NCBI RefSeq assembly: GCF_024521635.1
Contig: NW_026250407.1
Coordinates: 1,364,001 to 1,428,000 of the forward strand
From: Tricharina praecox
Lineage: Eukaryota
Reading direction: 5' to 3'
Length of the DNA: 64,000 bases
The position numbers were made by a program, and so were the translations under genes. The notes below the pieces were generated by a model that made no database searches, was not told the origin of the DNA, and saw only the letters and a list, made by a program, of their open reading frames with translations. Every line of letters starts with the position of its first letter. Within the stretch, counting starts at the first letter, position 1. Shown here piece by piece: positions 31,360 through 36,499 of this stretch.

Positions 31360-33448
31360 ATGATCGGCAAGCCACCACTCCCGCCTCACAGGTGCCATAC
31401 TAATAAGTCACAGACCACGTCCTGGGGCGTCCCTCCCTCCAATTCCGCAAATACCAAGTCCTCGCCGTCCTGCTATTCTGGTCACTCTACCTGCTCCGCG
31501 GCAACCCCCACGGGCCGCCCATACTATTGCTCCGACACCTCTCTAAAATCATGTCCAAGCGCCTAACACCGTTCCAAACCGTCACACTCACGTTGCTGTA
31601 CCTCTATGTCACGCGGAATTTTGCCAAGTTGCTCAACTTGGAGAGTCCGGAGCCGTTGGCGAATCTGTACACGAGGAGCTACTTCCGAGCTACGTGGGTG
31701 ATGACGGCGCTGGATGCCGGCTTTTGGACGGCCATGAGGATTCGCCGGAAGTGGTTGAGGGATGCCTGCTCCATGGTGTTTAGTGTGTATTACTTGTTTG
31801 CCGCCGAGAGGGCGGATGAGAAGGTGTGTTTTTGTGCGCCAGGAGGCGGAGAGATGGGAGAGGTAATACTAATGGCGGACAGGTGCGCCGAGTCAGAGCA
31901 ACGATAACAGTCGACCACCTCCGCGTCTCCTGGGAGAAACCGATGACGCCATATCTGCGCTTTCTCAGCAATTTGCTGCACCCACCACACAATAAGTTCG
32001 CCCCTCGTCCCCTGCGCATTCCCCGCCCAAAGGAGTCCGTCTATTCGGTCCCGGTGGACGCATGGCTTTACTACGAAGGAACACGGGAACAGCTTCGTTC
32101 CTGCAAAAAAGTAATCCTAGACTTCCCCGGTGGCGGGTTCGTAGCTATGTCGCCTCGCCATCACGACGACAAGCTGCTCACATGGGCCCGGCTGTGTCCG
32201 GGTGTGCCGGTGATCTCCATCGATTACAAGAAGGCACCCGAGTACCCGTATCCGTACGCGCTCAATGAATGCTACGACGCCTACCACTCCATCATCACCA
32301 CGCGTGGACGGTGCGTCGGGCTGAGCGGGGACGTAATTCCCAAGATCGCGTTGACTGGTGACTCCGCTGGCGGGAACTTCACAGCTGCGACCGTACTGAT
32401 GATCCTCAACGCCGCGTCAACGTCGAGTACTGGCTACCTGATGGAGGCAGGGTGGAAGGGGCTCCCGCTGCCCGAGGGCGTGATCCTGATCTATCCCAGC
32501 CTGGACCTCAACATGTCCTCGTGGATGTCCGACGAGCAATTGAAGCTAATCCGGCAGCGGAGCACCATGGACACGAACCGGAACGTCGTCCGCAAAAAAA
32601 GCGAGTACTACGAGAAAGCGTCCGGGACGTCGCGGCACCCGTCCCCGCACCCCTCCCCGCCCTCGCTGCAGACAGCAGCAGCAGCAACAGCAGCAGAGTA
32701 CTCAACGCGCCTCGCAATGACCAGCCGCCTCTCGTACTTCAACGACCGTATCCTGACGCCGGAGATGATGCGCGCAATGGTGATCCTATATATCGGCCCG
32801 CACCGCCCGGACTTTCAAACGGACTTCTTCCTATCTCCCATCGTCGCGCCAGAATCACTACTCGCGCGCTTCCCACCAGTCTACTTCCTGACGGGCGAGC
32901 GCGACCCGCTCGTCGACGACACGCTGATCTTCGCAGGGCGCATCCGCGCCGCAAAGCAAGCTGCACGGCAGCACCGCCGCAACCTCGGCCTGAAGCCGAC
33001 GGCACAAACCGAGCGCGGCGACGCCGTCGAGGTCTCGCTGATCCAGGGCATCTCCCATGGCTTCTTGCAGATGGCCGCGCTGTTCCCGCAGGCGAGAAGG
33101 GAGCTGAGGAAGTGCGCCGTCTGGCTGAATCGTATACTTGAGGACGTTCCCGGCGAGGAGGCGAAGCTCGACGTCGAGTCCGATGAGGAGCATCCGGGCC
33201 TCGCAGGGTATATTACGACGTACACGTCCGATGAGGATCGCCCGTTGGAGATTGGTGGGGGATTGGGCGGCGTGAAGGTCGAGGGGAAGGGCAGGGGCAG
33301 GAATAGGAATAAGAGGCTGCCTAGGGGACGCGGTAAGAGGAGGGGGAGTGTCGTCAGCCTGGGCAGTGAGGATGATCTGATGGGCAGGAGAATGCAGGGG
33401 CTCACGAATGGGCTGGCAGGTGAGCCGGCTGTGGACGGTGACCTGTAG
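31360..33448 (+). CDS. Hormone-sensitive-lipase-family alpha/beta hydrolase (Abhydrolase_3) with N-terminal hydrophobic segments; exons 31360-31366, 31414-31823, 31883-33448
   Basis: Spliced N-terminus MIDHVLGRPS (needs a GC-AG first intron), DFPGGGF oxyanion motif, IDYKKAPEYPYP, GDSAGG nucleophile, GERDPLVDD and ISHGF. Confidence 0.88.
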
Positions 33449-34150
33449 TATTGTTGGAAAGGTGAGGCTGGAGGTTGCTTTATAGGTAGATAGGTTTTGC
33501 GTTTTGAGCTTTGCGTTTTGCTTGGGCGTGGGGGTTTTGATGGTTCGGTTTCAGCGCAAATATTGGGGTCTTCGCTAGATGTTACAACCACGATGGGAAT
33601 GGTGAGATGTAGGATAATTTTCCACTACTCTAGATGTGGAGTGACGATGACTGGTGCCCGTGTACCTACCAAGTACCTACTGTGATTCCGGCTTCATCAC
33701 TTGCCAGAGGAGAGCGAAGCTTCATCTGGTTCATCCGGTTCAGTTGCACAATCGCCCCTCAGAGAATACCCAAATCAGAGAAACGCCGAAGCAAAGCATC
33801 ATGTACATACGACTTGCATGCAGCATTTCTTACGTACCCTCCCCGGAAAAATAGTGTGTAGAGTACCTACACGAAGGAAAGTCGGATCACAAGCACATGC
33901 ACATGCACAAGTGCACCAACCGCGGAAAAAAATTCTTCCGGCGCCGCACCCACCGCAGTATGTAACCCCACCACCGCCTACATACCGCCGCCAAGTCTCG
34001 CGTCCGCATCTCTCCTCCACCACAACCACGACCACGACCACCACCCTCGCCCCTCCCCCGGCCACCACGATCCACCCTCGCCTCCCGCAATTACTAACTG
34101 CTACCGCACCCTCACACACCCTCTAAACCCACCGAAGACGAACAACCACA

Positions 34151-34496
34151 ATGCGCGGCGCCGCCTTCCCCGTCGGCCTAGCGATACTCTTCGGCGTGAT
34201 GAACGGCGTGTACATCTTTAAGCCGATGCTGATCGAGGCGCGGTTGGCGCGGTTGCAGGAAGCGTAAGCCGCCTCGTCCCCCGCTTCCCTTCTGACCCTT
34301 CTGTGGTATGGGATGGTCGGGGGTGTACTGGGAGATCTGGGGGTGGGGTAGTGGGCTAAGGTGGTCACGCAGGGGCGAGGATGTTAATGCCATTGGCACC
34401 GAGAAACGGAAGGAGGAGGAGGTCAAGCTACATAACGCAAAGGCGCGGATCGAGGCTGCTGAGGGACGGGGGAAGGAGGAGGAGAAGAAGGCGTAG
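34151..34496 (+). CDS. PIGBOS1-like single-pass membrane microprotein, 78 aa; exons 34151-34263, 34373-34496
   Basis: Good start context (CACA ATG) and a GTAAGC..GCTAAG..CAG intron. Product: MRGAAFPVGLAILFGVMNGVYIFKPMLIEARLARLQEAGEDVNAIGTEKRKEEEVKLHNAKARIEAAEGRGKEEEKKA. Confidence 0.75.
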
Positions 34497-34628
34497 TGTG
34501 GGGAGAGGGTGTACGGGAGGTTTTGTTAACAGCGCTTTCGCTTCAATTCTAGTAGTTCAGATATTAAACCCCCCACTGGTACGTACACATGTATTCCCAA
34601 CATATGGAGAGGAGACGGCAGCTCTATG

Positions 34629-36499
34629 CTATACATTCAAGTCTCCGTCCACACATCCATTCCCGTGCTTGGGGGTTTGAGTCCCCTCAATGTTCACGAC
34701 TTCGTCCTTGTCCTCGTCCTTGTCGTCCACACGTTCATTCCCGTGCTCGAGGGGTTGAGTTCCCTCAACGTTCACTGCTTCGTCCTCGTCTTCGTCCTCG
34801 TTCTTGTCGTCGACAGTCGCCGCTTCACCGTCATCAGGTGGTGGTGGTGACGCCTGCTTCTTCGATTTGCGCTTATTCTTCTTCTTTTTGGACGACCCCT
34901 CGGTGGCGGTGATGGTAGCTTCGGCAGGCGCCTTCGTCTCTGGCGTGGTGGTGGAGGGAATCGGGAGTTCATCGGACTTGTCTACCTCCGTCTTCACCTC
35001 CACCTCCTCCTTCACTTCCACCTCCACTTTCTCCTTCACTTCCACGAACCCGCGCTTGTTCTTCTTCTTCTTCTTCTTTTTTTTCGACGACTCCTCGGTA
35101 GCGGGGATGGTATCTTCGGCAGGGGCCTTCGTCTCCAGCGTGGTGGTGGAGGGAATCGGCAGTTCATCGGACATCTCCGTCTCCGTCTCCACCTCCACTT
35201 GCTCCTTCACTTCCACCTCCACAAACCCGCGCTTGCTCTTCTTCTTCTTCTTCTTCTTCTTTTTGGAAGACTCCTCGGTGGCGGTGGTGGTGATGGTAGC
35301 TTCAGCAGGCGCCTTCGTCTCTGGCGTGGTGGTGGAGGAGGGAACCGGCAGTTCATCCGACATCTCCGTCTCCGTCTCCGTCTCCACCTTCACTTTCACC
35401 TTCTGCCTCACCTCGACCTCGACAAACCCATCATCGAAGACCCTTTCATGACACCATTCCCTCAGCTTCCTGATCCTTTCCGCTCTCCTGCCAACATAGC
35501 GCACACAGCCCATGACAACCAAGATATCCCTGAAAGCGTCGCCCTCCAAACACATCATCCTCATGACCAACGTAATCGGCACGAGCATGACGTATATGGC
35601 CCCGATTTCGATCCGCGTCAGGCCGTCGGCGTTGAGCTGCAGCAGTGCTTGCATGTGTGCCGCATACAGGTTCATCTTTGCTTTCGTGAAGGACGTGGCG
35701 AGCGACCGCCAGAGTGCGCAGCCGATGCGGAGAGCTTTGTGGATGGTAGGGGTGCGACGCACGCGGCTTATGAAGGTGGCGCAGAGCGGGTGGAGGTGCG
35801 AGATCGCGAGGGATATGGACTTGGTGAAGTGTACGTATTCTTCGGAGAGCGTGGTGAGGCTGGTGAGCAGGTTGTGGTAGGTCGTGTACAGGTGCGGGTG
35901 CGTTTGCTGGGCGGCGGAGAACTGTACCGTCCACGATTGTAGCGTCTTCAGGAGCGATGACGGTGTGCGGAAGGCGGGGACCAAGTGGCGGATGAGAGCA
36001 CTATGCTCTGTATCAGCAAACTCCGGAGGAAACAGCAGCAAAATAAGCAGAAGCATTTCATACCCCAGCTCCTCGTCACTGTACACAATCACGCGAGCCA
36101 ACTCGTCCGTCGGCGGATCCTGCACCTTCTCACAGAAGCTCTGGTACTCATCGATGTACGAATCGGCCAGCATAGTGAGCACGTCGATACTCATCGTCAT
36201 CTCTGCCGTCTACCACTCTCCCACATCAGATCAGCTGCTCACTCTCCCATACACCATTCACCATTCACACGGACGCGGGCGAGACAGAGAAAGAGAGGGG
36301 GACAAACCTGCTCTTCGACGATCGCCATCCCCTTGCTAAGCTTCTTCTTGACCTTCGTCGTCATGGATTCGCTGTTCTCTAGGGCCTCCGACATCTCCGC
36401 CGTGGCGAGAAAACACGCAGTTAGACGCTCGCTGATGGTGATCCCCGGGAGCTCGAAAACATCCACGACGTTGAGGTCTTCGAAGTTGACTTCGTCCAT
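34629..36499 (-). CDS. Hypothetical protein with a helical N-terminal domain and C-terminal tandem repeats containing poly-Lys tracts; exons 36499-36308, 36209-34629
   Basis: MDEVNFEDLNVV exon plus a GTTTGT..CTGAT..TAG intron joins in phase 0 to the 523-aa ORF. Three copies of a ~55-65 aa unit ending SSKKKKK, then two acidic repeats. Confidence 0.7.

Follow-up and report, generated by a model that had tools for sequence, protein, structure and literature searches.

The stretch of Tricharina praecox DNA analysed here, a 64-kb window of 64,000 nucleotides, carries on its forward strand a spliced two-exon gene that encodes a membrane microprotein of 78 aa and that, according to a genome search, occupies one locus in this fungus. 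The joined exons give a CDS of 237 nt with no internal stops, and without splicing the frame from 34151 closes after 38 aa. In coordinates of the window, the gene is organised as follows:

34002..34150, + strand: 5' leader, spanned by spliced contigs that start at 34002 in one run and at 34009 in the other (contig ends, not taken as transcription start); without upstream ATG
34151..34263, + strand: exon 1 CDS, 113 nt, encoding residues 1-37 and two bases of codon 38, and carrying the entire match to Pfam family PF23670
34163..34219, + strand: predicted single transmembrane helix, residues 5-23, presumably of the signal-anchor type (Kyte-Doolittle profile and a low-confidence AlphaFold2 helix over residues 5-37)
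34181..34237, + strand: conserved core A11-x3-G15-x3-G19-x3-F23-x-P25-x2-I28-E29 of the orthologue alignment, the spacing of which recurs in yeast Ecm19
34264..34372, + strand: intron, 109 nt, GT-AG, phase 2, with donor GTAAGC, acceptor CAG and a branch-like GCTAAG at 34355-34360
34373..34496, + strand: exon 2 CDS and stop, encoding a charged, probably helical tail, moderately conserved in residues 39-58 and variable at its end; no match in a Pfam scan
34497..34953, + strand: downstream stretch, continuous with the spliced CDS on one contig; either 3' UTR or merged with the transcript of the convergent gene

The ATG at 34151 is the only one from 34002 onward and stands in the context ACCACA-ATG-C, with A at -3. 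A splice-like pattern alone proves little here, since the 64-kb window holds 30 formal two-exon candidates of 60-100 aa. The microprotein gene is lifted above chance by junction contigs from two studies and by a reading frame that orthologues preserve over the junction. Contigs from two of the four runs join 34263 to 34373 over a GT..AG gap of 109, these runs being typed 'RNA?', i.e., presumed RNA and not so recorded; the other two runs gave no contigs over the window. Thus, the two-exon structure put forward in an earlier note on this DNA, which had named the junction 34263/34373 as a point to be checked, holds at both exons. An unspliced product of 38 aa as the main form is ruled out by the junction contigs and the conserved exon 2. 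The intergenic bins 33556-33939 are uncovered in both junction-bearing runs; read depth was not used for ranking expression. The GC3 of the microprotein CDS is 0.81, and that of three adjacent ORFs is 0.76, 0.75 and 0.50.

The gene had also been described as absent from the ORF track, and it is indeed missing from the plain ORF list, where exon 2 falls within a 62-aa ORF (34308-34496), but the identical 78-aa protein is already present in NCBI, RefSeq and UniRef (KAI5856052.1, XP_051342270.1) as a T. praecox hypothetical protein. PF23670 is already precomputed for this database copy and fungal PF23670 clusters exist, so that the picture of a hidden and largely unannotated system is not supported. 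Uncharacterised but already annotated in databases, the gene adds an ordinary member to a known Pfam family.

Downstream of the gene lies a convergent ORF of 523 aa (34629-36200, - strand), which contains three lysine-run repeats and shows no Pfam match below E 2.8. The contig of the spliced gene extends to 34953, across the final 325 bases of this ORF, which points to overlapping 3' ends or to a merged assembly. Moreover, at 34872-35200 a contig of 407 nt, present in both junction-bearing runs, steps back 329 bases with few differences, which repeats within the convergent ORF, or a variant copy, would explain. On the other side, the window holds a Mus7/MMS22 gene (PF09462; 24455-29581, - strand) and an alpha/beta-hydrolase gene of the hormone-sensitive-lipase-like kind (PF07859; 31551-33448, + strand), to which an upstream exon at 31551 probably belongs; no link between these two neighbours and the microprotein was seen.

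Family membership, protein layout and conservation

Exon 1 matches the Pfam family PF23670 (PIGBOS1-like) with 42.9 bits and E 5.5e-11, residues 1-34 falling on positions 1-36 of the 54-position model, and the full-length protein scores 42.2 bits against a curated cut-off of 27 bits. The match begins at model position 1 and stops at 36-40 of 54, leaving positions 41-54 unmatched. On this profile evidence, the T. praecox protein, encoded by one gene copy, belongs to the PIGBOS1 family, which supports, at the level of the family, the resemblance to PIGBOS1 seen in the earlier note. The membership of fungi is already implicit in the databases, since the PF23670 clusters of the ESM Atlas comprise, besides one of 59 members in which Chordata are commonest, one of 143 members (commonest Basidiomycota) and one of 73 (commonest Ascomycota). 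The step from the T. praecox protein to human PIGBOS1 itself would be carried by the Pfam model and by this chordate cluster.

In its predicted layout the protein likewise follows PIGBOS1: it is small, crosses the membrane once, near the N-terminus, and continues into a polar C-terminal tail. A lone hydrophobic stretch covering residues 5-23 (Kyte-Doolittle 19-mer 1.87) comes before a tail rich in E and K, in line with the single N-terminal helix and charged tail described in the earlier note. One basic residue precedes this moderately hydrophobic helix, and A11, G15 and G19 share one of its faces, a helical wheel placing them within 80 degrees. The AlphaFold2 model is weak (pLDDT 62.6, pTM 0.27, two helices), and a homodimer prediction for residues 1-45, with a score of 0.04 vs. 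a mark of 0.32, gave no verdict.

Single-sequence homologue searches returned the query alone (1 of 44 candidates; 1 of 21). With phmmer, six relatives were found among 1.84 billion representatives, all six at or above the PF23670 cut-off, and a profile search retained 14 proteins among 5407 candidates, 11 of which carry PF23670. Four of the seven relatives new to the profile search pass the cut-off and the other three are partial calls; the cut-off is reached by all nine other full-length relatives. The named relatives belong to Trichophaea, Sphaerosporella, Rhizina and two Pyronema species, presumably all Pezizales. The phmmer and profile searches contained no yeast or animal sequence, the named relatives all being cup fungi. 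None of the 150 pattern matches from a metagenome scan with the alignment of the orthologues was confirmed, a PDB sequence search gave three matches (E 0.14-1.3), none credible, and the structure matches in the Atlas were generic helices.

Four of the 14 proteins (P0007, P0013, P0015 and P0016) were excluded from the alignment as partial or mis-spliced calls, and in the ten sequences that compose it the residues P7, A11, F14, G15, N18, G19, F23 and P25 are invariant. Over eight orthologues, identity to the query amounts to 65% in residues 1-30 and 56% in residues 31-38, decreasing to 36% in 39-58, 17% in 59-71 and 20% in 72-78, where the last seven residues, lying outside the Pfam match, share 0-3 identities with the query. 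This distribution, high in residues 1-38 and low in the tail, indicates that the G-x3-G-x3-F-x-P signature is real and that the tail resemblance is not. Thus, the earlier reading of a GxxxGVYIFxP signature in common with PIGBOS1 stands in that part, while the proposed likeness of the C-terminal tails fails, since the Pfam match ends well before them. Homology of the tail motif to PIGBOS1 was therefore rejected, the resemblance of this variable C-terminus being incidental. Regarding the excluded proteins, gene calling apparently went wrong in P0007, P0013 and P0016 near an intron located at the Gly19 codon, a position at which the T. praecox gene has none, and P0015 resembles a lone exon 2 from a close relative. 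Mis-annotation is probably frequent among intron-split members of the PF23670 family.

Comparison with yeast Ecm19 and animal PIGBOS

In the ESM Atlas, the third-ranked match was a cluster named 'Protein ECM19' (0.89, 176 shared features), which was used as a lead only. A second query with residues 1-40, in which PF23670 clusters were skipped, did not contain it; this may mean that a member of the cluster carries PF23670, or merely reflect the changed query. The yeast gene was located by published checking primers, both of which, together with a 112-codon ORF, occur in two of 30 loci, one of them being ECM19_YEAST. When the fungal alignment was compared with Ecm19, hhalign gave a probability of 77.6% and P 1.9e-5 over 24 columns, and an N-terminal HMM of the fungal orthologues scored 13.1 bits (P 3.3e-6) on the 81-aa form of Ecm19, the match covering 22-24 mostly transmembrane columns and corresponding to E about 0.02 when scaled to a proteome of 6000 proteins. 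This score was reached by none of 5000 shuffles (maximum 8.0) and by none of 5000 segment-preserving shuffles (maximum 9.5), and the Ecm19 frame was the top non-self match among 2911 six-frame segments, 362 of which have a transmembrane-like window. In the reverse direction, Ecm19 1-57 as query placed all ten family members above 2817 decoys and scored 30.4 with hhalign, where none of 150 hydrophobic decoys exceeded 16.1, although the ten members are not independent and the decoys are not real mitochondrial anchors. On the negative side, PF23670 found no match in any of the six S. cerevisiae Ecm19 forms scanned, and genome-wide searches of T. praecox with Ecm19 as query did not recover the microprotein gene.

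Read from Met32, Ecm19 is like the T. praecox protein in having 81 aa, an N-terminal helix (8-26) and five of the eight invariant columns (A11, G15, G19, F23 and P25) at identical spacing. The number of matches to a strict motif is descriptive, because this motif was drawn up with both sequences in view. Ecm19 differs in its less hydrophobic helix (1.48 vs. 1.87) and in its tail, which is proline-rich instead of E/K-rich. Moreover, ECM19 (YLR390W) is intronless, unlike the two-exon gene of T. praecox, its flanking ORFs are unlike the neighbours in the T. praecox window, and it is annotated with 31 additional N-terminal residues. In this 112-aa annotation (L005 1556-1894), those residues precede Met32, and the form of 78-81 aa that appears in several records fits the family layout; the true start of Ecm19 may be Met32. 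Considering the alignment and profile scores, homology of Ecm19 to the PF23670 fungal family appears likely, and Ecm19 probably has its counterpart among filamentous fungi in the T. praecox protein. That Ecm19 and PIGBOS1 are orthologues with a shared role is a proposal for which the balance is even.

The accessible text of the 2025 Ecm19 study reports that Ecm19-GFP is mitochondrial, that loss of the protein aggravates hyperfusion in mdv1 or caf4 mutants and that it cooperates with Mdv1/Caf4 in fission (PMC12642899). Single deletion of ecm19 leaves respiratory growth, ATP, membrane potential and basal morphology normal; the same text gives no known mammalian orthologue and does not mention PIGBOS (PMC12642899). 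Ecm19 is also found, in the data of PMC4889329, among the cargo of mitochondria-derived compartments, which take up mainly outer-membrane proteins, with its sub-mitochondrial location listed as unknown.

Human PIGBOS, as presented in the available sections of the founding paper, is a 54-aa signal-anchor protein with a cytosolic C-terminus, placed in the mitochondrial outer membrane by protease protection and split-GFP, which oligomerises, is not a tether and binds CLCC1 via residues 30-36, directly after the helix (PMC6814811). These sections state that PIGBOS lacks both paralogues and homologues (PMC6814811). It resembles the T. praecox protein in being small and in having one N-terminal helix (7-29 in human, 5-23 in T. 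praecox) and a polar tail; the Pfam family is shared by name, the two having been compared via the Pfam model only. Compared with this model, the T. praecox protein (78 aa) has a longer E/K-rich tail, encoded by the second exon. In human, a single exon holds the CDS, which runs antisense to PIGB (PMC6814811), whereas the T. praecox CDS is split by an intron. Linkage to PIGB as in human, a matter of gene context and not a criterion for the protein family, was rejected: no PIGB-family gene (PF03901) lies on the microprotein contig, all seven matches in the genome being on other contigs. Two of these matches, C42:33536-34480 and C67:11590-12534, have identical scores and lengths, which would fit a recent duplication or a redundant assembly. 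Drosophila PIGBOS (CG34310, 129 aa) belongs to the family according to the accessible part of PMC12740097; its first transmembrane segment is conserved, an extension is specific to its lineage, and a second transmembrane domain is predicted in it (PMC12740097), unlike in the T. praecox protein, which has one.

Possible functions of the microprotein

By analogy with these proteins, the T. praecox product is best explained as a signal-anchored microprotein of the mitochondrial outer membrane that would tune mitochondrial shape or contacts, a reading given about an even chance. Going by what is known of yeast Ecm19 and human PIGBOS1, its helix would both direct the protein to the outer membrane and hold it there, the N-terminus lying inside and the charged tail facing the cytosol. 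The face formed by A11, G15 and G19 would pack on another helix, either its own copy or that of a partner, while the conserved juxtamembrane helix (about residues 24-38) would offer a cytosolic binding surface, followed by a charged and variable tail. What these proteins most likely share would be a dispensable part in adjusting the shape and contacts of mitochondria during stress, through fission or clustering, and the ER-stress/CLCC1 output is better taken as a function described in animals. This reading is ranked first because mitochondrial shape under stress is the common thread in fly, where PIGBOS self-associates and is needed for mitochondria to clump according to the accessible text (PMC12740097), and in yeast. 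It is followed, in decreasing order, by a role in respiratory-chain assembly, by convergence or some other role, and by regulation of the unfolded protein response (UPR) through CLCC1/Brl1.

Under an assembly role, which is unlikely, the microprotein would be a mitochondrial protein with one membrane pass that resides in the inner membrane or touches it and helps to assemble complexes III/IV, as UQCC3/Cbp4, PET117 or SMIM20 do. After PF23670 and ECM19, the next Atlas neighbours are clusters of UQCC3, CBP4, SMIM20 and PET117, which are assembly factors, and of DUF4516, but their scores of 0.76-0.79 are below 0.8, a level that shuffled proteins attain a third of the time. Human PIGBOS1-FLAG co-purified HIGD2A (the Rcf1 orthologue) and subunits of complexes III and IV, as stated in the available text of PMC8664129; this co-purification points to the inner membrane and, thus, against the outer-membrane reading. 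PIGBOS has also been implicated in Ca2+ transfer and its loss impairs respiration, according to a preprint whose accessible portion mentions neither yeast, fungi nor conservation (bioRxiv 10.64898/2026.01.08.697870). Nevertheless, the ecm19 deletion leaves respiratory growth, ATP and membrane potential normal (PMC12642899), and the protease protection and split-GFP results locate human PIGBOS in the outer membrane (PMC6814811). Convergence is rather improbable. It would accept the PF23670 membership while tracing the resemblance to Ecm19 (and perhaps also that to human PIGBOS1) to independently acquired glycine-rich transmembrane helices in a protein with a lineage-specific, possibly non-mitochondrial membrane role. 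The similarities are indeed short and largely transmembrane, Ecm19 has no PF23670 match and the homologue searches named no genus beyond a handful of cup fungi. However, the PF23670 score exceeds the curated cut-off by 16 bits and the match begins at model position 1, the Ecm19 score is never attained by shuffles in which the transmembrane composition is retained, and PF23670 clusters occur in Ascomycota, Basidiomycota and Chordata.

The explanation closest to the earlier note, i.e., a conserved factor at ER-mitochondria contacts that adjusts the UPR and whose fungal partner would be the CLCC1 homologue Brl1/Brr6, is ranked last and looks quite improbable. The accessible text of PMC13061601 presents CLCC1 as a structural and functional homologue of yeast Brl1/Brr6, without mention of PIGBOS. 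T. praecox has a single Brr6/Brl1-family gene (PF10104, 126 bits, contig C18, L002 769-1956). In addition, the CLCC1-binding residues 30-36 of human PIGBOS would match the conserved juxtamembrane region of the fungal protein (56% over 31-38), a correspondence read from model positions. Against it, the homology of CLCC1 to Brl1 is confined to the membrane MFH domain (PMC13061601), the available text of the Ecm19 paper reports effects on fission and redox and not on the UPR (PMC12642899), and the microprotein contig lacks a PIGB-family gene. A genome search for the CLCC1 family (PF05934) was empty, with a control equally silent, so that no absence is implied. The UPR and ER-contact role that had been transferred from the human protein is not supported here, and other roles stand beside it in the literature: co-purification with complexes III/IV in human (PMC8664129) and mitochondrial clumping in fly (PMC12740097).

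Under the outer-membrane reading, human PIGBOS1, fly CG34310, the T. praecox protein and Ecm19 would be members of one ancient opisthokont outer-membrane family controlling mitochondrial shape and contacts, in which case budding yeast already holds a genetic model for PIGBOS1. The value of the T. praecox protein is that of a bridge between human PIGBOS1 and yeast Ecm19, since the former was published without homologues (PMC6814811) and the latter without a mammalian orthologue (PMC12642899), as far as the accessible texts go. In the open literature searched (most subscription journals and bioRxiv supplements lie outside this scope), no paper was found that names PIGBOS and Ecm19 together, no title among the papers pairing PIGBOS with yeast or fungi deals with a fungal homologue, and the available portions of PMC7066179 and 10.64898/2026.08.29.748005 contain nothing on such homologues. 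Within this scope, the probable connection between PIGBOS1 and Ecm19 appears to be new. Three roles have been assigned to PIGBOS, namely UPR and Ca2+ regulation via CLCC1, mitochondrial clumping and association with complexes III/IV, and they would become separable by cheap yeast genetics if Ecm19 is the yeast member. The homology of CLCC1 to Brl1/Brr6 also turns an ancestral link of PIGBOS/Ecm19 with Brl1, joining mitochondria to the ER or nuclear envelope, into a testable hypothesis, albeit a very doubtful one. Budding yeast has two Brr6/Brl1 paralogues, as compared with the single gene of T. praecox.
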